Assembly (NCBI GenBank): GCA_964539395.1
Contig: CAZIIU010000013.1
Location: 14,082 to 78,081 of the forward strand
Reading direction: 5' to 3'
DNA: 64,000 bases
Origin: an uncultured Bacteroidaceae bacterium
Lineage (GTDB): Bacteria; Bacteroidota; Bacteroidia; Bacteroidales; GCA-2748055
This document shows, piece by piece, positions 13,901 to 27,652 of the stretch. Numbering within the stretch: position 1 is the first letter of the stretch; each line of letters begins with the position of its first letter. The translations under genes were made by a program, and so were the position numbers. The notes beneath the pieces were generated by a model that was given only the letters and a program-made list of their open reading frames with translations, was not told the origin of the DNA and did not search any database.

Positions 13901-14004
13901 GCCCCGGCAAAAATACCAAGAAAAACTGATTGTGTCAGAAGGAGGAATACAACACTTCTTTCATCCTTTTCGATGTTCATCAACTTGGGAATGCTTAGTG
14001 CCAT
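10903..14004 (-). CDS. Fusion protein: ~12-TM MFS/nucleotide-transporter-like domain, HEAT repeats, degenerate cyclic-nucleotide-binding-like C-terminus
   Basis: The ORF track starts at a TTG (14064). I prefer ATG at 14002-14004 (MALSIPKLMNIEKDERS) because a TAATTTTG -7 box sits at 14040-14047, inside the extension. Hydrophobic helices run through aa ~35-445. HEAT-like repeats include LPNIISLLRDRDMQIRIAAIEAAGKL and YLGHPDLYTAAWSALVDMG. The last ~115 aa (LFSDLERETIYKFASNF...YVSIMKSGSAI...) resemble a CNB fold, but I see no FGE or R[ST]A phosphate-binding cassette. Confidence 0.7.
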   Translation of the reverse strand: MALSIPKLMNIEKDERSVVFLLLTQSVFLGIFAGALDVGANALFLDAYSANMMPRAFMISGAVGILFTSAYTYLQKKIRFGLFTILNLLMVIILTGIIRLGYNITDDPVVTFALLVFMGPLIIISLLGFWGTAGRYFTLREGKRLFGVIDTGSIVGMIMAFYAVPLLVRFNFEVHNTLLIGLASLIIAMLFQILVLYKHRIGTVLISSELKRRSRGFLSIFRKRYTSMMAMFVILSVIVAFFIHYSFMWATEANYEDSRELTSFLGAFFGTMMIFTVVIKSTLYGWLMKNYGLRVSLLISPVLLLVLTIIAAVVGGFFGYTAEAASFTFFFLVISLSKLFNKSLKDAIESPSMKILYQSIDSGERFDIQAKIDGIVNEFTAFAAGLIMAGLLFLSFIQVIHFSYILIALLVIWVILGLSLYRLYRRTLNESLATARAAETMDVSNVQSQEENVSEASMYREMIRLDPYFYHQTDHDQLNHLLGASDEEKRKVAWKLISGTLYRCPDEIVESALKSSKDEELREIILAYKERLNLPGKKISEHFRTSDRNRVLASLLQTVELRDEGQLPNIISLLRDRDMQIRIAAIEAAGKLKVKQIGSYLVDYLGHPDLYTAAWSALVDMGDLVLGHLENAFHKSGVEEIVRLRIVRAMISIGSQRAKDLLFDKISYFQRDVREAAIRGLYIYNYHPDEQQKLVLLDLVYEAVLAGAMNIAAEFVIRENDPGNDLYGAIAEERKRTDHLIFNLLGIAYDRSVIGHVQQSIEDKDNEDAGYALELMNLIVDDQVYAYLEPYYDALSVPEKIRRLQNEMPVEISSYEKLLIDLMNRDGLYTGSYLRICAIEMLRSIDVDAERYLAAQVFHPDPVISKTASHVLATKDKELYTDIVKRIEGVYSDESIAGPAEVPSFGSGIIEVVEELKSWKLFSDLERETIYKFASNFIGNSYISTDRPDYVSIMKSGSAIENLLSEGVVINLTDYPAILGQMDYLASHPEFRFYQIERKVFRELLFDLPELRLVCHRFFSTADAARFIHWKTN

Positions 14005-14039
14005 CCTCAGGGAATTTGCAATTAAGGTGCAGCAAAATA

Positions 14040-14047
14040 CAAAATTA
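14040..14047 (-). promoter_or_regulatory. Bacteroidota -7 promoter box TAATTTTG (minus strand) for the six-gene operon
   Basis: Plus strand reads CAAAATTA at 14040-14047, which is TAATTTTG on the minus strand and matches TAnnTTTG. It lies 35 nt upstream of ATG 14004. Confidence 0.4.
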
Positions 14048-14253
14048 TCATTTGAGTGCAGCAATTATTTTTCAAACGATTCAAAAAACCAACTTAAAGC
14101 TGAATAAAATATGACCAATATAAGGAAAAGAACCTGCCAAAACATTGCTTCACTGGATAACTGACCTTAATTTGATGATGAAATTAAACAAATGGCAACC
14201 TTAATTGTAAAAAAAATTAATACTTTTAAAATCAATATTCCAAAAATGAGCTG

Positions 14254-15024
14254 ATGTTCGGTCCGGATGAAGAAGTAGATATCAAAATTGCCCGCCGGCG
14301 CGAATTAGTCTTCATAATTCTATCCGGTATCTTTCTCGGTACACTCGCTGTACTCAATATTCTGGGCCTTTCCAGACAGATTGATCTGTCGTTCACGATC
14401 CGCGGGTGGACTGTGCCTTTTATCGTCTTTATTGGTGTACTCCCCTACCCGATCACATTCCTGTGTACAGACTTTATAAGTGAACTCTACGGAAGACGAA
14501 GGGCCAATACAGTTGTTTGGGTGGGCCTCATACTCAACCTCTGGGTACTTTTTATCCTCTGGATCGGCGGTGTGCTTCCCCCACGGCCTGAACTGGATGC
14601 AAATAACCTGCCAGAGCTGACAGATCCAACCTATAGCTTCTTTTATTTCCGAAAATTAACTGGAATGGCCACAATGGCATCTATGATCGCCTACCTGACC
14701 GCCCAGTTTGTCGACGTGCAGATATTCCACCTCTTAAAAAAACTCACAAAGGGAAAAGCCCTTTGGCTAAGGAACAACGGTTCCACTCTCACCAGCCAGA
14801 TGGTCGACTCAATTGCAGTGATCCTGATTACCTACTCTTTCTCCGACGCGATCCATATCCATCCGGGAGAGACCGTGGCACACGGACTTATGATACTCAT
14901 CTTGTCAAATTATACCTTCAAAATGGTCTCTGCCCTGCTTGACACAATACCTTTCTATATAGGGGTCAAGACCCTTTCCCGCTACCTTCACCTGGATCCA
15001 AATAAAGATTACAGTGGTAAATAA
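14254..15024 (+). CDS. yhhQ: Queuosine-precursor transporter (YhhQ/VUT, DUF165 family)
   Basis: 256 aa and polytopic. The conserved-looking LPYPITFLCTDFISELYGRRRAN segment and the size fit the YhhQ family. It is divergent from the operon above. Confidence 0.75.
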   Translation: MFGPDEEVDIKIARRRELVFIILSGIFLGTLAVLNILGLSRQIDLSFTIRGWTVPFIVFIGVLPYPITFLCTDFISELYGRRRANTVVWVGLILNLWVLFILWIGGVLPPRPELDANNLPELTDPTYSFFYFRKLTGMATMASMIAYLTAQFVDVQIFHLLKKLTKGKALWLRNNGSTLTSQMVDSIAVILITYSFSDAIHIHPGETVAHGLMILILSNYTFKMVSALLDTIPFYIGVKTLSRYLHLDPNKDYSGK

Positions 15025-15127
15025 GGTACATCCGCGTCTCATCATATCATTAGTACCCTTAAATAGTAATGCATTTTATACCCTGTCAAACATACACCAA
15101 AAAAGCAGCTGTCTTATCCAAATTTTG

Positions 15128-15145
15128 TAATTTTGTTTAGCTTTG
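15128..15145 (+). promoter_or_regulatory. Two tandem -7 boxes (TAATTTTG 15128-15135; TAGCTTTG 15138-15145) upstream of the liu-mva cluster
   Basis: Both match TAnnTTTG exactly. They lie 75-85 nt upstream of the TTG start at 15220. Confidence 0.4.
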
Positions 15146-15219
15146 TTTAAACTTTTTTCTGTATCTTTTAAACAAAATCGGATAAAAAGGTGTTAATGAT
15201 AAAATAAAAGCAAAAAAGA

Positions 15220-16827
15220 TTGTATACGATCAGGTCCAATATAGAAACAAGAAACTCTGAATTCAGGCAAAGAAAAGAATTTCACAGCGCACTGCTTAAC
15301 AATTACCGGTCTTCATTGGCAGAGGTCATCTCCGGGGGGACGACAGTTGCCAGGGAAAAGCACACCGCCCGTGGAAAACTGTTGGTCAGGGACCGCATCG
15401 ACCTGCTGATCGATCCCAATACACCCTTTCTTGAACTCTCCCCGCTGGCAGCTTACGAGCAGTACGACAACCAGTTCCCTTCTGCCGGTATCGTTACTGG
15501 AATAGGAGTGATCCACGGTAAAGAGACTATCATCATAGCAAACGACGCCACGGTAAAGGGCGGTACATACGTGGAAGAGACCATTAAAAAGCACCTGCGC
15601 GCACAGGAAATCGCACTCAAAAACCATCTACCTGCAGTCTACCTGGTAGACTCCGGCGGAGTTTTCCTGCCAAACCAGGCCGAGGTGTTCCCCGACAAAG
15701 AGGATTTTGGCCGCATTTTCTACAACCAGGCACGCCTTTCAGCTGCCGGTATTCCGCAGATAGCCATCGTTATGGGATCATGTACCGCAGGTGGAGCATA
15801 TGTCCCGGCCATGAGCGACGAGACGATTATCGTTAAGGACCAGGGTACGATCTTTCTCGGGGGACCGCCACTTGTTCGGGCCGCTACCGGTGAGAACGTT
15901 ACTGCCGAAGAGCTCGGTGGTGGTGTGGTGCACACCTCCATCTCAGGTGTTGCCGACCATTTGGCCGAAAACGACAGGGATGCACTTCAAATCTGCAGGA
16001 ACATCTTCGAAACACTCCAGATGCCCGAACGGCAAAACCTCGAACGCATCCCGGTAAAAGAACCGCTCTACGACCCTGAAGAGATTCCCGGGATCCTTCC
16101 GGTATCAGGCCGAGAGCCATACGATGTAAGAGAAATCATCGCCCGACTGGTCGATGGTAGTGAGTTCTCCGAGTTTAAGAAAAACTACGGTACTACGCTG
16201 ATCACCGGTTTTGCACATATCATGGGCTATCCCGTAGGTATCATCGCCAACAACGGGATCCTCTTTTCCGAATCCTCCCTCAAAGGGACCCACTTCATCC
16301 AGTTATGCGATTTTCGCGGTCTCCCGATCATCTTCCTTCAGAATATCTCCGGCTTCATGGTCGGTAAAAAATATGAGCAGGGAGGCATAGCCAAAGACGG
16401 CGCTAAAATGGTCCATGCCGTTGCCAATACCCGGGTGCCCCGCTTTACGATCATAATCGGAGGGTCATTCGGCGCCGGAAACTATGCCATGTCGGGGAGG
16501 GCGTATGATCCAAACATGCTGTTCATGTGGCCGAACTCCAAAATTTCGGTTATGGGCGGTGAACAGGCTGCAGATGTTCTTGCAACCATCAGGGAGGATC
16601 AACTTGCAGCAAAAGGTGAAACACTAACCCCTGAAGAAAATGAAAAAATACGCCGTCCTATCATCAATAAATATGAATATGAAGGATCTGCTTATTACAG
16701 CAGTTCAAGGCTGTGGGACGATGGAATCATCGAACCGGCACAGACCAGGATCATCTTGGGTATCTCCATCTCCATGTCGCTGAACAGAAAATTTGACAAC
16801 CCCCAATATGGCGTGTTCCGAATGTAA
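15220..16827 (+). CDS. liuB: Methylcrotonyl-CoA carboxylase beta subunit (carboxyltransferase)
   Basis: 535 aa. [27 protein letters not shown] and the size are typical of MCCase beta. TTG is the first possible start after an in-frame TAA at 15205-15207. Confidence 0.85.
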
Positions 16828-16829
16828 TC

Positions 16830-17621
16830 ATGAAACAGAAACAATATATCATAGAATCGACCGGATCGCAGGTGGGTTATATCACCCTCGACAGGCCAGA
16901 GGTACACAACGCCCTGAACATAGAAATGATACGCGAAATAGCCGGATCGATAAAAAGATTCAATACTAGGAAGGGGTTAAGGATGATTATCATCAATGCA
17001 AACGGCGATAATTTCTCTGCAGGGGCGGATCTGAAATGGATGAAGAAGGGACTCGAACAAAATGAAAAAGAGCTAAACAGTGAAAGCCTCGAACTGGCAA
17101 ACCTATTCAACAGCATCTACAACTCATCAGTGGTAACTGTGGCTATAGCAAAAGGAAAAGTCATCGGTGGAGCCAACGGGATTATCAGCGCTACGGATAT
17201 CTCAATTGCCGGCGAAAACAGTTCATTCACCTTCTCCGAAGTCAGACTCGGACTCATACCCGCTATCATTGCACCCTACATCGTGCAAAGGACCGGCGAA
17301 AATATTGCCCGGGAATGGATGCTCACTGGTAGAACGATTCCTGCGCGTGAGGCATATCAGCGCGGACTGCTACATGCCCTGGTACCGGAAACCGATCTTC
17401 CACGATACCTGGAGCAGTTCACGGAAACCATGCTCAACAACGGTCCTAATGCAATGAAGGGCATAAAAAAGATGTTCAGAAAACAGGAATTATCAGCACA
17501 CCCCGACCAGCTGATGAAACCCACTGCAAAACTCATTGGGAAATACAGGATATCGGAAGAGGGACAGGAGGGAATAAAGGCTTTCTTTGAAAAACGAAAA
17601 CCTGCCTGGTACAATGAATAA
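16830..17621 (+). CDS. liuC: Enoyl-CoA hydratase (crotonase family), by context methylglutaconyl-CoA hydratase
   Basis: 263 aa. Crotonase motif FSAGADLKWM. It sits between the two MCCase subunits, with a 2-nt gap upstream. Confidence 0.75.
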   Translation: MKQKQYIIESTGSQVGYITLDRPEVHNALNIEMIREIAGSIKRFNTRKGLRMIIINANGDNFSAGADLKWMKKGLEQNEKELNSESLELANLFNSIYNSSVVTVAIAKGKVIGGANGIISATDISIAGENSSFTFSEVRLGLIPAIIAPYIVQRTGENIAREWMLTGRTIPAREAYQRGLLHALVPETDLPRYLEQFTETMLNNGPNAMKGIKKMFRKQELSAHPDQLMKPTAKLIGKYRISEEGQEGIKAFFEKRKPAWYNE

Positions 17622-19605
17622 CTGGAAATTCAATAAGATACTTGTTGCTAACAGGGGCGAGATCGCCCTGCGCATCTTGCGGGCTATCCGGAAATCGGGA
17701 TTGTCGTCTGTCGCCATCTTTACCGAATCCGACAGGCATCTGCCCTATGTGCAATTCGCCGATGAGTCGTGGCCAATTAACGGGGCAACGCTGGCAGAAA
17801 CATACCTCAACCAGCAACTGATCATCGATATTGCCCGTGGTACAGGTGCAACTGCAATACACCCCGGATACGGATTCATGGCTGAAAATGCAGATTTCGC
17901 GCGACTCTGCAAGAAGAATAATATAATCTTTATCGGGCCTTCTCCGAAGGTGATCGACCTCATGGGGAACAAGGCCAACGCACTGGCAGAAGCAAAAAAA
18001 CATGGGGCTCCTGTAATTGAAGGAACTACAGGTTCACCGGAAAAAATTCTGCAAAATGCAGCAAATTTTCAGTATCCCGTTCTCATAAAACCTGCAGCAG
18101 GTGGTGGTGGCAAAGGGATGCGCATCATAGGCAAAAGCAGCGAACTTAAAGAAGCAATGGAAGACGCCTCAAGAGAGGCAATGAACTATTTTGGTTCAGG
18201 GGAACTCTATATCGAACGCTACATCGAAAGGGCCAGGCACATCGAGGTACAGGTACTGGCCGACCACCATGGCAATGCTGTCCACCTCTTTGAAAGGGAA
18301 TGCACCCTGCAACGCAGGTACCAGAAGATCATCGAAGAGGCCCCCGCCCCATCAATCTCTCCGGAAACAAGGGAAAAAATCACTTCAGCTGCACTTAACC
18401 TGACCCGGGGCATCAATTATACCAATGCCGGTACCATAGAATTTCTTGTCGATCAGCATGAAAATTTCTATTTCATCGAGATGAATACAAGAATACAGGT
18501 AGAGCATCCTGCAACCGAAATGATCACAGGAATCGACCTGGTCAGGGAACAAATATGTATCGCCGGAGGAAGCAAACTAAGTGTTCAGCAAGAGGATATT
18601 AAGATTAAAGGACATGCCATCGAAGCACGGCTATACGCCGAAGATCCGGCGAACAGGTTCATGCCCGCTACCGGAACCATCAGGAAAATAATCACCGATC
18701 ATGTCAACATCCGAATGGACAATGGATACGTTGAAGGCAATTCCATCTCACCATTCTACGATCCCCTGATCAGCAAGGTGATTTCCCATGGCGCCGACAG
18801 GAATGAGGCAGTGCGGCAACTTATATCCGGACTTAAGCACTACCACCTCGCCGGACCGGTTACGAACCGCGATTTCCTGGTGAAGCTTCTTCAATCGGAC
18901 GATTTTGCATCCAACAGAATTTACACGAAGTATATCGACGAACACCTTGTCTCCCTGCTGGAACAGATGAATTCGGAAAAAGATGAAATTGAAACCAATG
19001 TACTCCTTTCCATGTTCACCGTAGCTGCAATTCGCCATACCTACAGTTCCCGGGTTCCTCATTCCATCTGGCAAGAAACCGGATACTGGCGCCAGCTTTC
19101 TGAAATCAGGTTCCGGTTCAGGGAAACCGACTACCGCATTCCGATTAGAACCAGCAACACGGGCCGCACCATCGAGGCGATCATCAGCGGTGAACCTGTA
19201 CAGATACACCTGCTCGATCAGACAGATAATTTCTTTAAACTGATGATCGATGGCAAACAATACCAGTACTGGGCCGAAGTGGATCAATCGGATCTCATGC
19301 TCAACGTGGAGCAATACAGCTTTTTCGCAGCCAGAACGGATATTCCATTCAACAGACAAAGTGGCACGGTCGCAGTTGCAAATAACAGTGATGCAAATGA
19401 GGTGACAGCACCGTTGAATGGCAAGGTTGTAAAAATCAATGTAAAAGCAAATGACACCGTATCGTCCGGCGACACCCTGCTCGTCATTGAATCCATGAAA
19501 ATGGAAAACAGGATTATCTCGCCGAAAGATGCCGCGATTGCGGAGGTCTTGGTACAGAACGGCGATCTCGTTGAATTAAACAAACAATTAGTCACATTTA
19601 AATAA
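17614..19605 (+). CDS. liuD: Methylcrotonyl-CoA carboxylase alpha subunit (biotin carboxylase plus biotinyl domain)
   Basis: ILVANRGEIALRI, GGGGKGMRI and the C-terminal biotinylation motif IESMKMEN. I moved the start to ATG 17614 (MNNWKFNKILVANRGE), which overlaps the liuC stop by 8 nt. The ORF track start at 17587 extends further into liuC. Confidence 0.9.
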   Translation: MNNWKFNKILVANRGEIALRILRAIRKSGLSSVAIFTESDRHLPYVQFADESWPINGATLAETYLNQQLIIDIARGTGATAIHPGYGFMAENADFARLCKKNNIIFIGPSPKVIDLMGNKANALAEAKKHGAPVIEGTTGSPEKILQNAANFQYPVLIKPAAGGGGKGMRIIGKSSELKEAMEDASREAMNYFGSGELYIERYIERARHIEVQVLADHHGNAVHLFERECTLQRRYQKIIEEAPAPSISPETREKITSAALNLTRGINYTNAGTIEFLVDQHENFYFIEMNTRIQVEHPATEMITGIDLVREQICIAGGSKLSVQQEDIKIKGHAIEARLYAEDPANRFMPATGTIRKIITDHVNIRMDNGYVEGNSISPFYDPLISKVISHGADRNEAVRQLISGLKHYHLAGPVTNRDFLVKLLQSDDFASNRIYTKYIDEHLVSLLEQMNSEKDEIETNVLLSMFTVAAIRHTYSSRVPHSIWQETGYWRQLSEIRFRFRETDYRIPIRTSNTGRTIEAIISGEPVQIHLLDQTDNFFKLMIDGKQYQYWAEVDQSDLMLNVEQYSFFAARTDIPFNRQSGTVAVANNSDANEVTAPLNGKVVKINVKANDTVSSGDTLLVIESMKMENRIISPKDAAIAEVLVQNGDLVELNKQLVTFK

Positions 19606-19611
19606 TGAACA

Positions 19612-20763
19612 ATGGATCCCCTATTAACAAATAAACATGAATTATTCAGGGAAAAGGTCAGGTCTTTTGCTGAAAAAGAGATAAAACCTGTGGCAGCAAA
19701 GCTTGATGAGGCCTCTGAGTTTTCGGTGGAATTAACCGAAAAAATGTTCAATGAGGGTTATCTCAGCCTGGTTACTCCGGCAGAGTTTGGTGGCATGGAA
19801 ATGGATACCCTCTCATACATTATAGCAGTGGAGGAAGTTGCCCGTGTTGATGGTTCGCAAGCCGCCACAATTGCAGCCCAAAACTCCCTCGGACAGGGCC
19901 CCATACTGGCTTATGGAACTGAAGAACAGAAGAAAAAGTTTCTCCCTGTGCTCACCACGGGGAAAAAACTCTGGGCTTTCGGACTTACTGAACCAAATGC
20001 CGGTTCGGATTCCAACAACACTGAAACCACAGCCGAATTGAAAGATGGCCACTGGCACATCAACGGCAAAAAGATCTACATCACCAACGCAGCCTCCGTA
20101 ATGGCCGGTGGCGTTACAGTGCAGGCTGTCACAGGGGATCGCGGAAAAGGAATGAAGGAGCTATCAGTGATCCTCGTACCACGCGATACGCCGGGCTACA
20201 GCACTGAGGTAATCGATTCAAAGATGATGTGGCGCGCTGCCGATACCGGAAGAATCTTCTTCGACAACGTACAGGTTCCCAAAGAATATATCCTCGGAGA
20301 ACGGGGGAAAGGATCAAAAATCATGCTTGCTACACTCGACAGCGGCAGACTCTCTATCGCTGCCATGGGACTCGGACTTGCACAGGGGGCGTTTGAGATG
20401 GCAATGGAATATGCCTCCGGCCGGGTACAATTCGGTAAGCCAATCCGCAGCTTTCAGGTCAACTCATTCAAACTGGCCGATATGGCTACGAAAATTGAGC
20501 TGGCAAGAAGTCTGCTTTACAAGGCTTGCTGGCTCAAGGATCATAAGCAGCCTTTTGGCAAAGAAGCCGCTATGTCTAAACTGTATGCCTCTGAGATAGC
20601 ACGCGAAATCGCCAACGAGTCGCTGCAGATCCACGGTGCACACGGACTGATGAAGGAAAATCCTATCGAACGATTCTACCGTGACCAACGAATCCTTGAG
20701 ATCGGTGAGGGAACTTCAGAGATACTGCGGCTTGTTATCGCAAGGCATTTAGGAATCAGGTAA
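19612..20763 (+). CDS. liuA: Acyl-CoA dehydrogenase, by context isovaleryl-CoA dehydrogenase
   Basis: 383 aa. ACAD C-terminal signature ERFYRDQRILEIGEGTSEI. Substrate assignment rests on gene context only. Confidence 0.75.
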   Translation: MDPLLTNKHELFREKVRSFAEKEIKPVAAKLDEASEFSVELTEKMFNEGYLSLVTPAEFGGMEMDTLSYIIAVEEVARVDGSQAATIAAQNSLGQGPILAYGTEEQKKKFLPVLTTGKKLWAFGLTEPNAGSDSNNTETTAELKDGHWHINGKKIYITNAASVMAGGVTVQAVTGDRGKGMKELSVILVPRDTPGYSTEVIDSKMMWRAADTGRIFFDNVQVPKEYILGERGKGSKIMLATLDSGRLSIAAMGLGLAQGAFEMAMEYASGRVQFGKPIRSFQVNSFKLADMATKIELARSLLYKACWLKDHKQPFGKEAAMSKLYASEIAREIANESLQIHGAHGLMKENPIERFYRDQRILEIGEGTSEILRLVIARHLGIR

Positions 20764-20773
20764 ATAGTCCATC

Positions 20774-21772
20774 ATGGAATCACTTGAAACACGAAAAAAA
20801 GACCATATCGACCTCGCGTTCAGATCGCAAACCGGTATGCCGGAGATCGACCACAGGTTTCATTATGAACCTATGCTTGCAGCCCACCCGGAAAAGGGCC
20901 TTCAACCCTTCAGATTTCTGGACCGCGAACACCGCGTCCCGATGTGGGTCAGCAGCATGACCGGCGGAACTAAACTTGCCGGAATCATCAACAGGAACCT
21001 GGCCCGTGCCTGCAGGGAATTCGGTATGGGCATGGGGCTCGGCTCCTGCAGGATCATCCTGAAGGACAATACCTATTTAGAGGACTTCAACATGCGACCG
21101 GTTATCGGACCGGATATGCCGCTGTGGGCCAACCTCGGGATCGCACAGATTGAAGAGTTGCTGGAAGAAGGCAGGGTTTCACTGGCAACCGCGTTGGTGG
21201 AAAAGCTGGAAGCAGACGGACTTATCATCCATGTTAACCCAATGCAGGAATGGTTCCAGCCCGAAGGAGATATCATAAAATATCCGCCCATCGATACGAT
21301 CAGGCGCTTCATGGATCATTTCAAATACCCCCTCATCGTTAAAGAGGTCGGTCAGGGCATCGGACCGGAAAGCCTGAGGGCCCTGCTTCAATTACCCCTG
21401 AAGGCAATAGAGTTTGCTGCGTTCGGGGGAACGAATTTTGCCCGTGTAGAACTTCTGCGCAGCGAAAATGCAGAGGCAACCCTGTTCGAACCTCTCTCAA
21501 ACATCGGTGAAGATGCAATGTCGATGGTAGAGTCGATAAACGCAATTATCACCACTGAAAAACCGGTGTGCAGTGAACTGATCATCTCCGGCGGAATCAG
21601 AAATTTCCTGGATGGTTTCTACCTGCTAAAGAAATCAAAGTTGCCCGCGATCTACGGGATGGCCTCCACTTTCTTAAAATATGCAAAGGAAGATTACGAT
21701 CAACTCTATACATTTGTTGAAGGCCAGGTAAAAGGACTTGAGATGGCTTTTGCATACCTGTCCGTTAAATAA
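20774..21772 (+). CDS. fni: Type 2 (FMN-dependent) isopentenyl-diphosphate delta-isomerase
   Basis: 332 aa. RKKDHIDLAF, VKEVGQGI and ISGGIRN are typical IDI-2 motifs. Confidence 0.85.
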   Translation: MESLETRKKDHIDLAFRSQTGMPEIDHRFHYEPMLAAHPEKGLQPFRFLDREHRVPMWVSSMTGGTKLAGIINRNLARACREFGMGMGLGSCRIILKDNTYLEDFNMRPVIGPDMPLWANLGIAQIEELLEEGRVSLATALVEKLEADGLIIHVNPMQEWFQPEGDIIKYPPIDTIRRFMDHFKYPLIVKEVGQGIGPESLRALLQLPLKAIEFAAFGGTNFARVELLRSENAEATLFEPLSNIGEDAMSMVESINAIITTEKPVCSELIISGGIRNFLDGFYLLKKSKLPAIYGMASTFLKYAKEDYDQLYTFVEGQVKGLEMAFAYLSVK

Positions 21773-21777
21773 AAAAG

Positions 21778-23106
21778 ATGGCTCAGAAGAAGGCAATATC
21801 GGGCTTCTCAAAGCTGACACCAAGGCAAAAAACCGAATGGCTGCGCGATGAACATAATCTTCCGGATGAACAGCTTGAAACCCTCTCCTCCCATCTTCAT
21901 CCCGACCCACAGTTACAGTCGCTCTACAATGAGTTCAGCGAAAACACCGTTTCCAATTTCTTCATACCCTACGGATTGGCCCCCAACTTCCTGATAAATG
22001 ATAGGTGGTATGTGCTGCCAATGGCCATCGAGGAAAGCTCGGTAGTGGCAGCTGCTTCACACGCGGCAAAGTTCTGGTCGGACTATGGTGGGTTCCGGGC
22101 AGAGGTGGTGGACACGGTTAAGGTCGGACAGGTTCATTTCTTCTGGAGCGGCACTGAAGGCTTTATAACGGAAGTATTCGAAAAAAACAGGGCGACAATG
22201 ATCCGGTCGATGGATCCGTTCACAGAATCAATGCGAAAACGGGACGGCGGAATAAAAGATCTCCTGCTGACCCGACCGCAGGATTCACCTGACCATTATT
22301 ACCAATTGCAGCTTCAGTTCAGAACCGCCAGTGCCATGGGGGCAAACTTTATCAACACCGTTCTCGAAGAAATGTCGAAAGTGTGGAAACAAATTGTCGC
22401 AAAACACGCGAAGGAGCAAAAGGAAGAGGGGGAACTTGAGGTTAACATGGCAATCCTGTCGAATTACACACCCGAATGCCTGGTAAGGGTTTGGGTGGAA
22501 ACCGGGGTTGCAGCCTTCGGCCGGTTCGATGCAAACCTCTCAGGGCAACAATTCGGGGAAAAATTTGTCAGGGCCACAGAAATTGCAGGAACCGATACAT
22601 ACCGTGCCGTTACACACAACAAAGGGATCTTTAACGGAATGGATGCGGTAGTTATCGCTACAGGAAATGATTTCAGGGCCGTCGAAGCCTGCGGACATGC
22701 CTTTGCTGCCCGTAACGGCCGCTACCGCAGTCTCTCCAAGGCTGAGATCAGGAATAACAGATTCAGGTTTGAACTGGAGGTTCCCATGTCGGTCGGCACA
22801 GTAGGAGGACTCACATCCGGTCACCCTCTGGCTGCCACAAGCCTGAAGATTCTGCATGATCCTTCGTCTGAGGAGCTGATGATGATCATCGCCGCAGCCG
22901 GACTGGCAAATAACTTTAGTGCCATACGTTCACTGATCACCACCGGTATTCAGGAAGGACATATGAAAATGCACCTTACAAATATCCTCAGGCAGCTCGG
23001 AGCAGACGAACTTTTGAAACTGGAAGCAGTAAAATTCTTCAAAAACAAAACTGTCAGCTATGCCGATGTAAAAAAGTTTGTCCTGGAAAAAAAGAACAAA
23101 CCATGA
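21778..23106 (+). CDS. mvaA: HMG-CoA reductase, class II
   Basis: 442 aa. EESSVVAAASHAAKFW, SAMGANFINT and SVGTVGG match class II HMGR motifs. Confidence 0.85.
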   Translation: MAQKKAISGFSKLTPRQKTEWLRDEHNLPDEQLETLSSHLHPDPQLQSLYNEFSENTVSNFFIPYGLAPNFLINDRWYVLPMAIEESSVVAAASHAAKFWSDYGGFRAEVVDTVKVGQVHFFWSGTEGFITEVFEKNRATMIRSMDPFTESMRKRDGGIKDLLLTRPQDSPDHYYQLQLQFRTASAMGANFINTVLEEMSKVWKQIVAKHAKEQKEEGELEVNMAILSNYTPECLVRVWVETGVAAFGRFDANLSGQQFGEKFVRATEIAGTDTYRAVTHNKGIFNGMDAVVIATGNDFRAVEACGHAFAARNGRYRSLSKAEIRNNRFRFELEVPMSVGTVGGLTSGHPLAATSLKILHDPSSEELMMIIAAAGLANNFSAIRSLITTGIQEGHMKMHLTNILRQLGADELLKLEAVKFFKNKTVSYADVKKFVLEKKNKP

Positions 23107-24020
23107 ACCAACAATTCTATGCACGCGGAAAGCTATTGCTGAGTTCCGAATTTATGATCCTGCACGGAGCAAAGGCGCTTGCTGTGCCGCTTAATGTAGG
23201 ACAATCGCTCAAGCTGGTTGCAAAAAGGAATCCGGGTGTGGTACATTGGTTGGCAGAATTTGATCATGATACCTGGTTTGAAACCACCCTCTCACTGGAA
23301 AAACTTGAAATTCTTGATACCACAGGGGAAGATAAATCGAGAAACCTGGTCCACATCCTCAGGAATCTGCTGGAGATCAAACCCTCATTTACGGACCAGC
23401 TTCACTCAAACGATGTGGTTACCACGCTTGAATTTGACCCGTCATTTGGTTTCGGCAGCTCTTCGACCCTAACAGCGCTCCTGGCACAATGGGCACAGAT
23501 TGATCCAATGCAGCTCCACTTCCATATTTCACAAGGATCGGGTTATGATGTTGCCTGTGCCGGTGCAGAATCGGCGATCCTCTACCAGGTGGTGAACGAT
23601 ATGCCGGTAATACAATCGGTCGATTTCCAACCCATCTTTATGGAAAGAATGTGGCTGGTCTACCTCGGACATAAACGAAATTCATCAGAAAGTGTAGCTG
23701 CTTTTCTGAATAGCTATGAAGCAGATCAGGATGATATTGCACGTTACTCCGCGATCACCTGTGAAATGCTCAGGGCACAGTCAGCCGTGGAGTTTGGATC
23801 ACTGATGCATACCCATGAGAAGCGGCTGTCGGAGATCCTGAACATTCCCCCTCTCAAACAAAAACTGTTCCCCGACCTTGATGGATATGCAAAATCGCTT
23901 GGTGCCTGGGGAGGTGATTTTGCCTTACTCCTGACTTCGTGGGATAAAGAAAAGCTGGCATTCTACCTCCGGGAAAAGGGGTTCGACAGATGGTTCGCCT
24001 ACGTTGATCTTGTTCTATAG
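23103..24020 (+). CDS. GHMP-family kinase of the GYDIA type (mevalonate-pathway kinase, exact step unassigned)
   Basis: 305 aa. GHMP motif GFGSSSTLTALL and GSGYDVACAG, which resembles the GYDIA signature as I recall it. ATGA overlap with mvaA. Confidence 0.7.
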   Translation: MNQQFYARGKLLLSSEFMILHGAKALAVPLNVGQSLKLVAKRNPGVVHWLAEFDHDTWFETTLSLEKLEILDTTGEDKSRNLVHILRNLLEIKPSFTDQLHSNDVVTTLEFDPSFGFGSSSTLTALLAQWAQIDPMQLHFHISQGSGYDVACAGAESAILYQVVNDMPVIQSVDFQPIFMERMWLVYLGHKRNSSESVAAFLNSYEADQDDIARYSAITCEMLRAQSAVEFGSLMHTHEKRLSEILNIPPLKQKLFPDLDGYAKSLGAWGGDFALLLTSWDKEKLAFYLREKGFDRWFAYVDLVL

Positions 24021-24065
24021 CAACAGTACGTATAATTAACCGGGTATTAACCAAAAATTATAACA

Positions 24066-25163
24066 ATGGACAAGTATGAAAATGTACTGAAACAGGAGAC
24101 CCAAAAACTCGGCTCAATGGAACCTGTCAGGAAAGAAGGTTCTGTCGGCTGGCAAGCACCGTCGAACATTGCCATCGTAAAATACTGGGGCAAATATCCG
24201 GGTCAGGTACCGGCGAACGCTTCGCTGAGTGTTACCCTTGAAAAGGCGGTGACCAGAACACGCATCGGCTATTCATGGCAGAAAAATGAAAATGGCGTTC
24301 AGCTCAAATTTACATTTGAAGGGAAGAAAACTCCCGATTTTGAGAAAAGAATAAAAAAGAACCTTAATAACATCACACCGTTTTTTCCCTGGCTTAACAG
24401 GGTCAAGCTTGCAATAAGCTCTGAAAATACATTCCCCCACTCTTCAGGTATTGCATCTAGTGCGTCGGCGATGGGTGCACTGTCGCTCGGACTGTGTGAG
24501 ATTGAAGAGCAATTGTTTGGCGGACGCGCTACAGAGGATTTTTTCAGGAAAGCATCTTTTATTGCCCGTCTCGGTTCAGGCAGTGCATCCCGTTCGCTCT
24601 ATGGGAGGTTATCTGTATGGGGATACACGGCAAGCTGCAAGGATTCATCCGACGAATATGCAATCCCTGTTGAAGGTGTACATGATAATTTTTTGGGAAT
24701 CCATGACAGCATCCTGATCATCGAGTCGGGGAAAAAGCAGGTTTCAAGCACCATGGGACACGACCTGATGAAATCAAATCCATATGCAAAACTGCGGTTC
24801 GACGCCGCAGAAGAAAACATGCAACGACTCTGCAAAATTGTCAGAGAAGGTGACCTCAGGCAATTCATTGATGTGATGGAGAACGAAGCGCTTACCCTGC
24901 ATGCAATGATGATGACCAGCAGGCCGGGGTTCATGCTCATGAAGGCGAACACTGTGGAGGCCATCCACAGGATCAGGAAGTACAGGGAACAGAGCGGTAT
25001 GAGCGTAGGGTTTACCCTCGATGCAGGTGCCAATGTTCACATGCTCTACCCAGAAAAAGATGCCGATCGGATCAGGATGTACATTGAGAGCGAACTGCAG
25101 GAACTGTGCGAGAATGGAGCCGTTATTCATGACCGGATGGGAGACGGTCCGCTGAAGTTTTAA
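24066..25163 (+). CDS. mvaD: Diphosphomevalonate decarboxylase
   Basis: 365 aa. APSNIAIVKYWGK and SSGIASSASA are typical of the MVD family. Confidence 0.85.
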   Translation: MDKYENVLKQETQKLGSMEPVRKEGSVGWQAPSNIAIVKYWGKYPGQVPANASLSVTLEKAVTRTRIGYSWQKNENGVQLKFTFEGKKTPDFEKRIKKNLNNITPFFPWLNRVKLAISSENTFPHSSGIASSASAMGALSLGLCEIEEQLFGGRATEDFFRKASFIARLGSGSASRSLYGRLSVWGYTASCKDSSDEYAIPVEGVHDNFLGIHDSILIIESGKKQVSSTMGHDLMKSNPYAKLRFDAAEENMQRLCKIVREGDLRQFIDVMENEALTLHAMMMTSRPGFMLMKANTVEAIHRIRKYREQSGMSVGFTLDAGANVHMLYPEKDADRIRMYIESELQELCENGAVIHDRMGDGPLKF

Positions 25164-25269
25164 AATCCGGTTAAACAGGAAACACCAGCAGTTTCGCTGG
25201 TTTTGAAGAAACCGGTCGGTCGGCTGATTGATTTGGAAAAACATTTTAGAATTATCACGTGAGGTAAAA

Positions 25270-26196
25270 ATGATTAACACGAAAAAGAGATACGCTGCAA
25301 AATTGATGCTTGCAGGGGAGTACGGGGTGATCGTTGGAAGCGAAGCAATTACGGTACCGTTAAAAAATTATTATGCGCAATTGGCACAGCGGAAGGGTGA
25401 AACACGGGATCCGGAAATCATCAGATCGGTGGCAAGCCTCAGAAAACTTCTAACCTATATCAGGTCACTCCCTAAAAACAGCTTTTATGCAATTCCCGAT
25501 ACCAATGAGCTGGAAGAGTCTCTAAAAAAAGGATACTATATCTCTTCGACCATTCCCCACGGATATGGTATCGGAAGCTCAGGTGCCGTATCGGCCCTGG
25601 TGTATGACCAGTTCTTCAATTCCGAAAAAGTAACCGGACTTCAGCAACAGCGGAAGGACCTGGCAACAATTGAGTCTTGCTTTCACGGGAAAAGTTCAGG
25701 TGTGGATGCGATGACCTGCTTTACCGGTAAGGCGTTGCATTTTCTGCCAGAAGGGGAGATCAGGGAGTCAGAAATGGACCCTCTCCAACCCCGGGGGGGA
25801 TACCGCTTTTTCCTGCTCGATTCCGGGCAGGTATTTGATACTGCTCCATTGGTTCGGTATTTCCTTGAAAAGATGAAGAACAGTAAGTTTGCAGAACTGA
25901 TCACCAGGGACTATTTCGACCTGATAAAAAAATTCATTAGCACGCTGAACGGAACTTCAGACAATGACACAGCGCTGATATTCAGGGCAATATCCGACTT
26001 TCAGTGGAACCATTTTTCACGTATGATCCCAGAACAAATGAAAGATGCCTGGATCAACGGCCTGGTAAGCAATGCTCATTACATGAAACTGAACGGGTCC
26101 GGAGGTGGTTTCATGCTTGGAATCGCACATGAAAGTGCGAAAGATACTGTGGAACAAATGCTCCATGGCTCAACGATTACCTGGCTTGGAGTATGA
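25270..26196 (+). CDS. GHMP kinase (mevalonate kinase or phosphomevalonate kinase)
   Basis: KLMLAGEYGVIVGSEAITVP and the GHMP motif PHGYGIGSSGAVSALV. I chose ATG 25270 (MINTKKRY) over the TTG at 25228 in the ORF track. Confidence 0.75.
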   Translation: MINTKKRYAAKLMLAGEYGVIVGSEAITVPLKNYYAQLAQRKGETRDPEIIRSVASLRKLLTYIRSLPKNSFYAIPDTNELEESLKKGYYISSTIPHGYGIGSSGAVSALVYDQFFNSEKVTGLQQQRKDLATIESCFHGKSSGVDAMTCFTGKALHFLPEGEIRESEMDPLQPRGGYRFFLLDSGQVFDTAPLVRYFLEKMKNSKFAELITRDYFDLIKKFISTLNGTSDNDTALIFRAISDFQWNHFSRMIPEQMKDAWINGLVSNAHYMKLNGSGGGFMLGIAHESAKDTVEQMLHGSTITWLGV

Positions 26197-26219
26197 TAGG
26201 TCTGTAATACACCATAAAA

Positions 26220-26245
26220 AAGGGTGCCTGTTGCCAGACACCCTT
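26220..26245. terminator. Hairpin between convergent genes; the T-run follows it on the minus strand
   Basis: AAGGGTGCCTG-TTGC-CAGACACCCTT pairs at 10 of 11 positions. AAAAAA lies immediately 5' on the plus strand, which is a TTTTTT tail for the minus-strand lipoprotein gene ending at 26287. It may also stop the plus-strand operon. Confidence 0.5.
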
Positions 26246-26286
26246 ATATCAGGTCTCATTCTGTTGAGCATTCCAACGCTGTAACC

Positions 26287-27393
26287 CTAGTTGAATTCCA
26301 GTTTCAGATTTGCAACTGTTTTCGGATTATATGGAGCAAGTCCTGTAAGCCTCTCAGCAACCTCGTAAAACTCATCTCCTGGGGCTGTACCTCCCTGAAT
26401 AAAACCGTCTTTGTTAAAGAAACCGGGCGCCTCAGTATTCGTTAACCATGCATATAGCAGCTCATCACTCGCGTCGGGCCATACCGACTTAACTTCATTG
26501 ATGAATACATTTCTGATGGAATACTCCCCGAGCAGGACATTACGTCCTGTAGCATCAAGAATGCTCAGGGGCAAACCAACCTCTGCTGCAGCAACATCGT
26601 GGTCATTCTCACCACTGGCCACAAAAGCCCAGTTATATCCGGTTGTGGAGGTCAGCAATTTTGCATTCGGATGACTGGTATTTCCATAAACATCCACGAA
26701 AGAACCTTTTTTCCCAACAAACATCTTCATGGCATTAATTGCAAATGGCTCCAATAGAGGATCAATGGCAGGAAGATCGGAAATGGAGACAATCATATGG
26801 GCATCGTACCCCATCTCTCCCTCTTCACTATAGTCAATGCGAAACATTGCATCACCCAGCTCGGAATCATCCTTGCGGTTTATGTTGTAAGGTTTTAAAA
26901 GAGCAATTCCGGCTCTTGGATTTTCATTCCAGAAGATCTGCATCGCCTTTCCTCCATCCTCGTTCTCCTCCGAATCAGCATCAGTTATAGTCAAACCATA
27001 ATCCCATACCCTGTCCTCAAACTCAGGCGAACCCACAACAACAAGGTTTTTGATCCGGTTATCGTCATCACTTTGATAGGTAAGGGTTAAAATCCGGTCG
27101 ATATTGTATACATTAATTGACCAGATGATACCTTCCACAATCTCAGCTGCGGATTCACCAACGTGGATAAAAAAGATTAGGTGCTGGTACACTTCGTTGC
27201 CCCTCATGGTATCTACTGCCACACTCTTTTTTGCAGTGATATCCTGAGAAATGGCATCCGGAATGTCGACCGAAAATTTTTTCGGCAGAATGCTGTTCTC
27301 ATTGCCTGGACCGATGAGGTCGTTATCACAGGCGGTGAAAAAAAAGATTCCGCCAAAAATAATTGCGAAAGTAATAAAACTTGGCTTTTTCAT
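26287..27393 (-). CDS. Lipoprotein of unknown function
   Basis: 368 aa. MKKPSFITFAIIFGGIFFFTAC gives a lipobox Cys. No recognisable catalytic motif. Confidence 0.65.
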   Translation of the reverse strand: MKKPSFITFAIIFGGIFFFTACDNDLIGPGNENSILPKKFSVDIPDAISQDITAKKSVAVDTMRGNEVYQHLIFFIHVGESAAEIVEGIIWSINVYNIDRILTLTYQSDDDNRIKNLVVVGSPEFEDRVWDYGLTITDADSEENEDGGKAMQIFWNENPRAGIALLKPYNINRKDDSELGDAMFRIDYSEEGEMGYDAHMIVSISDLPAIDPLLEPFAINAMKMFVGKKGSFVDVYGNTSHPNAKLLTSTTGYNWAFVASGENDHDVAAAEVGLPLSILDATGRNVLLGEYSIRNVFINEVKSVWPDASDELLYAWLTNTEAPGFFNKDGFIQGGTAPGDEFYEVAERLTGLAPYNPKTVANLKLEFN

Positions 27394-27652
27394 GATTTCA
27401 ATTTTTAATTGTTTTTAATCTGAATTGTTTAAATCAACCTGTTTTCAATTGTACCACACAACAGGTCAGGAAAACCCCTACGCATAAATGAAAAAAAACT
27501 AAATATTTTGTTATTGTGTTTATTCTGTGCGACTTAAAAATACACGGTATTGAGCATAGACCTCCTGATCGTTCGCAAAAAAGCAGGATTGACAATCGTC
27601 AGGAACCAAACTAAAACTAAAATCCAGGGTGCCCGGCCTCGAAAATAATACT

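Follow-up and report, generated by a model that had tools for sequence, protein, structure and literature searches.

A block of nine consecutive plus-strand open reading frames (ORFs) fills positions 15220-26196 of a 64,000-nucleotide stretch of DNA from an uncultured Bacteroidaceae bacterium (assembly GCA_964539395.1, contig CAZIIU010000013.1; the whole stretch is called the window below). In order, the genes encode the beta subunit of 3-methylcrotonyl-CoA carboxylase (MCC), a crotonase-fold hydratase, MCC alpha, an acyl-CoA dehydrogenase (ACAD), a type 2 isopentenyl-diphosphate isomerase (IDI-2), a class II HMG-CoA (3-hydroxy-3-methylglutaryl-CoA) reductase, a GYDIA-family GHMP kinase, a diphosphomevalonate decarboxylase and a divergent mevalonate-kinase-like GHMP kinase. 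A half that resembles leucine/isovalerate utilisation (liu) clusters is joined in this block to a mevalonate half, and the genome holds no recognisable HMG-CoA synthase or lyase. The organism most likely builds isoprenoid units from the carbon skeleton of leucine, and we consider it probable that the nine genes form a self-contained linear route from isovaleryl-CoA to isopentenyl diphosphate (IPP) and dimethylallyl diphosphate (DMAPP).

An earlier reading of the window from its letters (the sequence-only reading) had listed the same nine genes in the same order; all the ORFs are indeed at those places, and family scans agree with their naming. It had also proposed that the hydratase product is handed to the reductase, giving a leucine-to-isoprenoid route. 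This proposal is supported by the lack of a synthase and of a lyase, by the conserved gene order and by the presence of a lyase in the same slot of a sister-family genome.

HMG-CoA enzymes and precursor supply in the genome

The sequence-only reading saw neither an HMG-CoA synthase nor a lyase at the locus, and genome-wide profile searches of the assembly, which is 99% complete, found neither mvaS nor liuE/mvaB. For the synthase, PF01154, which picks up archaeal and bacterial synthases in control genomes, had no match at E<=0.001 in this genome, and TIGR01835 gave only a 30-bit FabH-like match. For the lyase, the only HMGL-like matches were LeuA, a 2-isopropylmalate synthase that scores 737 bits (cut-off 532), and a synthase of CimA-like type encoded within a leuC-leuB cluster. 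Dxr, IspG and IspH of the methylerythritol phosphate (MEP) pathway are present, each above its cut-off. The mevalonate route would therefore be an additional source of IPP and not the sole one.

Isovaleryl-CoA supply is plausibly encoded in the same genome. A VorB-type 2-oxoacid:ferredoxin oxidoreductase (542 bits, cut-off 399) occurs with its beta subunit and further oxidoreductases, and genes for a 2-oxoacid dehydrogenase E2 and a fused E1 alpha/beta stand just upstream of leuA (G000, contig C7, 37030-42795; loci L102 and L001). The E2/E1 pair beside leuA is a possible link from 2-ketoisocaproate to isovaleryl-CoA.

A genome of a sister family, G027, has five genes in one row (L089, 5793-12442), namely those for MCC beta, hydratase, MCC alpha and dehydrogenase and then an HMG-CoA-lyase-like gene of 297 aa. 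The first four are orthologous to those of the block, with 67, 38, 43 and 62% identity, and the dehydrogenase has the same IGEGT motif. The reductase, GYDIA kinase, decarboxylase and kinase of G027 are encoded on another contig (L090, 8638-12964), and no HMG-CoA synthase was found in this genome. In the window's family, IDI-2 and the mevalonate genes occupy the slot that the lyase holds in G027.

Conservation among relatives

The comparison set comprised 41 genomes of the same order, including 24 further members of the family to which the window belongs. Of the 41, 26 have the reductase (21 of the 24 within the family), and every one of these 26 carries an MCC beta orthologue (63-89% identical), the reductase never being found without one. 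Two family members that lack the reductase, G014 and G018, also lack the MCC beta orthologue. In 17 genomes, including G034 of another family, a single contig carries both MCC beta and the reductase, separated by about 6.5 kb; in G017 and G006, contig ends cut the block, which continues in register. The comparative survey of gene order that the sequence-only reading had proposed showed the nine-gene order to be kept in at least 19 of the 26 reductase-bearing relatives, which represent Bacteroidales of at least two GTDB families. The same order is found in the named records L010, L011, L015, L018, L020, L054, L077 and L086 of metagenome-assembled genomes (MAGs), and the closest named records are uncultured Bacteroidales MAGs. 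No HMG-CoA synthase scored above the cut-off in the 41 order genomes, and the search for a lyase-like gene in the 24 family genomes gave none. Outside Bacteroidales, among the 80 closest reductase loci, Flavobacteriales show the reductase-GYDIA pair only, and MAGs resembling Saprospiraceae and Chitinophagales show IDI-2, reductase and GYDIA kinase only.

Dxr is present in 37 of the 41 genomes. Searches of G017 (97% complete) and G021 did not find it, and in G015 the gene has two in-frame TAA stops and a truncation (G015:C8:518237-519139). These cases may reflect the decay of a single MEP step, a substitute enzyme or gaps in the assemblies; loss of the MEP pathway is not claimed for these three genomes, as IspG and IspH are intact in all of them.

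Other observations concern single relatives. Three genomes of the order have an MCC beta orthologue of 67% identity (G032:C248, G033:C137 and G039:C575; L093-L095) but neither a reductase nor a lyase-like gene, and a 355-aa synthase-like gene (109 bits) occurs at G033:C342:3443-4354, on a separate contig from the MCC beta orthologue. In L054, a UbiA/MenA-like prenyltransferase gene (14519-15457) directly follows the last kinase of the block; it scores 107 bits, below the cut-off, against a 1,4-dihydroxy-2-naphthoate (DHNA) polyprenyltransferase model and is a hint that a prenylquinone could be made from the IPP.

Carboxylase, hydratase and dehydrogenase

The beta subunit is, by its similarities, clearly of the MCC kind rather than a geranyl-CoA or propionyl-CoA carboxylase. 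It matches PF01039 with 504 bits and, among solved structures, the MCC beta of Pseudomonas aeruginosa (3u9r) with 717 bits, AccD1 of Mycobacterium tuberculosis with 718 and human MCCC2 with 685, but reaches only 466 bits with geranyl-CoA carboxylase beta (5ikl) and no more than 277 with propionyl-CoA carboxylases. Three carboxyltransferase paralogues elsewhere in the genome are 30-32% identical to it. MCC alpha, whose gene is 0.8 kb from that of the beta subunit, has the domains Biotin_carb_N, CPSase_L_D2, Biotin_carb_C and Biotin_lipoyl in this order. The hydratase matches PF00378 with 176 bits, and its top NCBIfam model is PRK05674, gamma-carboxygeranoyl-CoA hydratase (206 bits over the full length, cut-off 426). 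Its gene sits between the two MCC subunit genes in all relatives compared, and the protein would be a 3-methylglutaconyl-CoA hydratase.

The sequence-only reading had listed the fourth gene as an acyl-CoA dehydrogenase and had described the conversion of isovaleryl-CoA to HMG-CoA as starting with isovaleryl-CoA dehydrogenase (IVD). Membership of the ACAD family holds, with all three domains present, whereas the closer type is that of short-chain/butyryl-CoA dehydrogenases. The top PDB match is 5ol2_C, which we take to be the butyryl-CoA dehydrogenase of the Clostridioides difficile Bcd-EtfAB complex, followed by other short-chain/butyryl-CoA dehydrogenases, with IVDs far lower in rank. The catalytic Glu lies in the J-K loop motif IGEGT and aligns with the YEGT Glu of 5ol2_C, the position known from medium-chain acyl-CoA dehydrogenase (MCAD); this J-K loop position is used by all ACADs but IVD and the long-chain enzyme LCAD (PMC10925408). 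Given this motif and the low rank of the IVD structures, the enzyme is not a canonical IVD. The C-terminal motif IGEGTSEI (MGEGTSEI in L018) recurs in all 18 orthologues that were read, including the G027 copy preceding the lyase, and Thermus thermophilus 1ws9 shares the motif. Before the catalytic Glu, the dehydrogenase has Gly where 5ol2_C has Tyr. A Gly at that site reportedly makes room in IVD for the branched substrate, and the residue presumably corresponds to Gly374 of IVD. The only other ACAD in the genome (580 aa, 30% identical) adjoins two ORFs of the size of electron transfer flavoprotein (ETF) subunits. Because the enzyme is of a non-IVD type with 5ol2_C as its nearest solved relative, its substrate and direction are read from the gene context, which suggests that it oxidises isovaleryl-CoA to 3-methylcrotonyl-CoA.

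Mevalonate pathway genes

IDI-2 matches TIGR02151 (E 7.5e-59, 199 bits, cut-off 281; positions 2-320 of 338) and no Pfam family, and its orthologues keep their position in the fused clusters. An IDI is needed for the mevalonate route and not for the MEP pathway; its place in the block fits a mevalonate route, since that route yields only IPP. The reductase matches PF00368 (272 bits), TIGR00532 (246 bits, cut-off 260) and PDB 7n7s (424 bits) and is about 50% identical to Flavobacteriales reductases. The blocks EESSVVAAAS, HNKGI, GNDFRA, GTVGG and GHMKMH are conserved in its alignment and presumably contain the catalytic Glu, Lys, Asp and His of class II enzymes.

The GYDIA kinase scores 298 bits against NF040656 (cut-off 225), the only NCBIfam match of the block above its curated cut-off, and its gene follows the reductase throughout the Bacteroidota loci compared. 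It has no PDB match by sequence. An AlphaFold model (pLDDT 94, 29 orthologues) predicts a GHMP-kinase fold to which mevalonate and phosphomevalonate kinases are equally near. As the fold gives no discrimination, the protein is probably the phosphomevalonate kinase by elimination, together with the precedent of Flavobacterium johnsoniae. The decarboxylase scores 154 bits against TIGR01240 (cut-off 171), and all 18 of its PDB matches at E<=1e-10 are mevalonate diphosphate decarboxylases. The last kinase scores 64 bits against TIGR00549 (cut-off 163) and matches only mevalonate kinases in the PDB (2x7i, E 4.9e-5); in each of the 13 fused-cluster loci compared, an orthologue (27-65% identity) comes after the decarboxylase. 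According to the account given of Hayakawa 2017 in PMC6107057, F. johnsoniae has divergent kinases for both steps.

Proposed route and alternatives

From gene content and order we infer the substrates and the direction of flux as follows. The dehydrogenase would convert isovaleryl-CoA to 3-methylcrotonyl-CoA, with electrons probably passing to ETF; MCC alpha and beta, with biotin, ATP and bicarbonate, would carboxylate it to 3-methylglutaconyl-CoA, and the LiuC-type hydratase would yield (S)-HMG-CoA. Because the genome has neither a lyase to split HMG-CoA nor a synthase to make it, the class II reductase would take this product onward to mevalonate. The mevalonate-kinase-like kinase, the GYDIA kinase (probably the phosphomevalonate kinase) and the decarboxylase would then lead to IPP, and IDI-2 from IPP to DMAPP. 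Leucine could supply the isovaleryl-CoA, as could 2-ketoisocaproate formed by the organism's own LeuA, LeuCD and LeuB, through the VorB-type oxidoreductase or the 2-oxoacid dehydrogenase complex; isovalerate from outside the cell may be another source. The carboxyl added by MCC becomes C1 of mevalonate, the carbon that the decarboxylase removes. The C5 skeleton of isovaleryl-CoA would therefore reach the isoprene unit intact, and label fed as leucine would be expected in isoprenoids as whole C5 units.

We can only speculate on the physiological role of such a route next to the MEP pathway. One idea is that a mat organism living by peptide fermentation could spare carbon through it at times when peptides or isovalerate abound. 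Another is that, where oxygen levels in the mat swing daily, it could stand in as an oxygen-tolerant back-up for IspG and IspH, which are Fe-S enzymes.

Several points weigh against the proposed route. The dehydrogenase, as judged from its motif, is not of the canonical IVD type. The absence of synthase and lyase is read from homology, and a non-homologous enzyme would escape such searches. With MEP genes present, the fused route is in principle dispensable. The role of the GYDIA kinase is deduced by elimination, and most family matches (IDI-2, reductase, decarboxylase and last kinase) lie under the NCBIfam curated cut-offs. Further, the related genomes are kin and not independent samples.

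The block might instead consist of two independent neighbouring modules, a catabolic one with an unrecognised lyase and a mevalonate one with an unrecognised synthase. The two modules lie apart in G027 and G035, so each can stand alone, and homology searches are blind to non-homologous enzymes. However, the spacers at the join are at most 10 nt long and contain no promoter box, and at least 19 genomes preserve the join. Neither a lyase nor a synthase was found in this genome or in the 24 family genomes, the reductase was in none of the 41 genomes without an MCC beta orthologue, and G027, where the modules are apart, likewise has no synthase. Taken together, these observations make independent modules unlikely. 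Another substrate is also conceivable, in that the enzymes might act on a different short acyl-CoA of crotonyl or geranyl type and give a non-canonical product instead of IPP from leucine; the top NCBIfam model of the hydratase, a gamma-carboxygeranoyl-CoA hydratase, and the short-chain type of the dehydrogenase would agree with this. We regard it as very unlikely, given that the beta subunit scores 717 bits with the P. aeruginosa MCC and 466 with the geranyl-CoA carboxylase of the same species, that in G027 the orthologues of the first four genes come before an HMG-CoA-lyase-like gene and that the genes downstream in the block are of the usual mevalonate-pathway kind of Bacteroidota.

[quoted passage not shown] Bacteroidota are rich in iso-branched fatty acids, and the dehydrogenase resembles enoyl-CoA reductases of anaerobes. 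On the other hand, the kinase and decarboxylase steps are irreversible, and no synthase was found as a source of HMG-CoA. The carboxylase is a complete ATP-dependent MCC and not an AibA/B-type decarboxylase as in Myxococcus, and the IDI-2, the two kinases and the decarboxylase of the block only make sense in the forward direction. Although LiuC does run backwards in the AIB route of Myxococcus (PMC5389471), a reverse direction seems highly improbable here. The route from isovaleryl-CoA to IPP and DMAPP is the reading that we favour.

Layout, signals and flanks of the block

The coordinates of the nine genes and of the candidate signals are collected in Table 1. The spacers along the block, re-measured on the sequence, are 2, -8, 6, 10, 5, -4, 45 and 106 nt, which reproduces the earlier values; the -8 junction presumes that MCC alpha starts at ATG 17614, overlapping the hydratase stop by 8 nt. 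Box and terminator scans found no intergenic promoter box and no plus-strand terminator within the block, and we infer a single transcript.

Table 1. Positions in the window of the nine genes and of the candidate signals around them.
Feature	Position	Strand	Basis or remark
Tandem Bacteroidetes-type -7 boxes (TAnnTTTG)	15128-15135, 15138-15145	+	75-92 nt upstream of MCC beta
MCC beta	15220-16827	+	Pfam/NCBIfam scan; start TTG 15220 provisional
Crotonase-fold hydratase, LiuC/AtuE type	16830-17621	+	Pfam/NCBIfam scan
MCC alpha, biotin carboxylase + biotinyl domain	17614-19605	+	ATG 17614 taken as start; longest ORF from TTG 17587
Acyl-CoA dehydrogenase, short-chain/butyryl-CoA type	19612-20763	+	Three ACAD domains (Pfam)
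IDI-2, type 2 isopentenyl-diphosphate isomerase	20774-21772	+	TIGR02151
Class II HMG-CoA reductase	21778-23106	+	PF00368, TIGR00532
GYDIA-family GHMP kinase	23103-24020	+	NF040656
Diphosphomevalonate decarboxylase	24066-25163	+	MVD-like_N + MDD_C domains, TIGR01240
Small hairpin	25184-25201		In 106-nt spacer before last kinase; terminator scan, minus strand; weak T-run follows on plus strand
Divergent mevalonate-kinase-like GHMP kinase	25270-26196	+	Start ATG 25270; TIGR00549, GHMP_kinases_N
GC-rich hairpin, 11 bp	26220-26245		Between block and convergent gene 26287-27393; T-run on minus strand

The tandem -7 boxes reported by the sequence-only reading can be read directly. They are the sole intergenic TAnnTTTG matches between 14000 and 26400, the other three (21709, 24311 and 25884) lying inside genes. 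About 3.5 matches per strand would be expected by chance in 11.3 kb, as estimated from base composition. They are a candidate promoter for the whole block. A sigma-70 promoter scan gave matches no more numerous than in shuffled sequence, and an Rfam scan of 14000-27500 at E<=0.1 gave none. The GC-rich hairpin that had been noted after the last gene exists but, with a T-run on the minus strand, is best explained as terminating the convergent gene; it is possibly bidirectional. The small hairpin, in the only long spacer of the block, could temper expression of the last kinase or mark a processing site.

The stretch derives from a microbial-mat metagenome. A search for sequencing runs that contain it listed two DNA runs of one microbial-mat study and no RNA run; in the DNA runs, unitigs tile the block at an even 5-8x depth and a single unitig (20689-21910) spans the dehydrogenase/IDI-2 junction; the mat run is possibly the source sample, and hence not independent support for the assembly. 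The G+C content is 0.465-0.50 in the block (window positions 16000-26000) and 0.42-0.45 in the flanks.

The flanking genes are unrelated to the block. Upstream lie the end of a STAND-NTPase operon and, at 14254-15024 on the plus strand, a queuosine-precursor transporter gene (Vut_1/TIGR00697, above cut-off). A transporter of this kind also stands directly 5' of MCC beta in L010, L011 and L018 and is seemingly broken in L020; no functional link to the nine genes is evident. Downstream, the convergent gene (26287-27393, minus strand) encodes a 368-aa protein whose position is kept in L010, L018 and L020 at 57-74% identity. This protein matched no Pfam or NCBIfam family, and its neighbours in the protein atlas are all Bacteroidota clusters labelled 'hypothetical protein'. 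Beyond this conserved hypothetical gene follows a formate-tetrahydrofolate ligase gene.

The source of HMG-CoA across the Bacteroidia

In an even sample of 150 Bacteroidia genomes, each at least 90% complete, the reductase is present in 37, and 22 of these 37 are without Dxr. Only 7 of the 22 have a synthase; the other 15 show no synthase domain at E<=0.001 (G067, G070, G073, G080, G103, G111, G113, G116, G118, G122, G150, G158, G184, G186 and G191). Similarly, no synthase was found at E<=0.001 in four named Flavobacteriales (Seonamhaeicola, Mesonia, Polaribacter and Dokdonia; loci L083, L017, L028 and L063). All 15 synthase-less genomes carry an MCC-beta-like gene (44-49% identical) together with a lyase-like gene of about 290 aa. 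The class-wide MCC beta counts use E<=1e-100, as a threshold of 1e-150 splits a continuous group of homologues that are 44-50% identical, and these homologues are less like the block's MCC beta than are those of Pseudomonas or human.

The fused operon suggests one answer to where synthase-less, mevalonate-only bacteria obtain their HMG-CoA. A general rule for Bacteroidota, by which the mevalonate pathway receives its HMG-CoA from the leucine/2-ketoisocaproate branch (dehydrogenase, MCC and hydratase) and not from thiolase and synthase, is a tentative and rather doubtful extension. If it were true, a liu-type upper pathway would be the sole and essential source of isoprenoids in such organisms, and thereby an undescribed 'upper mevalonate pathway'.

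Comparison with known systems

The leucine/isovalerate utilisation cluster of Pseudomonas has the gene order liuRABCDE. The block shares with it the order MCC beta, hydratase, MCC alpha and the presence of an acyl-CoA dehydrogenase gene. In contrast to the liu cluster, both the block and the genome lack the lyase (liuE), in whose place stand IDI-2, the reductase and the other mevalonate genes. The dehydrogenase gene follows the carboxylase genes and is of a non-IVD type, and no LiuR-like regulator is adjacent to the block.

The mevalonate half resembles the pathway of Bacteroidota as described for F. johnsoniae (Hayakawa et al. 2017, as far as represented in PMC6107057), with a class II reductase followed by a GYDIA kinase, and with a decarboxylase and a divergent mevalonate-kinase-like kinase. 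It differs from that type in being fused to liu genes, in a genome without a synthase that also holds MEP genes. Bacteria normally carry either the MEP or the mevalonate pathway, with some Firmicutes and Actinobacteria as exceptions (PMC6107057). The window's family would be a further exception, and Bacteroidales would join the few bacteria that keep both routes.

A full-text literature search, whose coverage left out most subscription journals, found no paper on a liu-mevalonate operon or on a liu-dependent bacterial mevalonate pathway. The block would be the clearest genomic statement that leucine-derived HMG-CoA can be a dedicated isoprenoid precursor. As a compact nine-gene cassette from isovaleryl-CoA to IPP and DMAPP without a draw on acetyl-CoA, it could also interest metabolic engineers.

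The chemistry proposed here, from isovaleryl-CoA through 3-methylcrotonyl-CoA, 3-methylglutaconyl-CoA and HMG-CoA to mevalonate, is the same as in several distant organisms. A myxobacterial sesquiterpene was labelled from dimethylacrylic acid and not from acetate (PMC7321100), leucine contributes to sterols in Trypanosoma brucei (PMC5993337), and channelling of leucine to mevalonate has been proposed for Calditenuis archaea (PMC12979851). Those cases are cross-talk between separately encoded pathways in genomes with a synthase and/or a lyase, whereas here a single block is found and neither enzyme. The myxobacterial AIB operon, with MvaS, the glutaconate-CoA-transferase-like decarboxylase AibA/B and the reductase AibC, differs in that the present genome has no synthase and the block has a full biotin carboxylase in place of AibA/B. 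In comparison with all of these systems, a liu cluster and a mevalonate operon have here been fused and lyase and synthase lost; the chemistry is known, and its encoding in a single block appears to be new.

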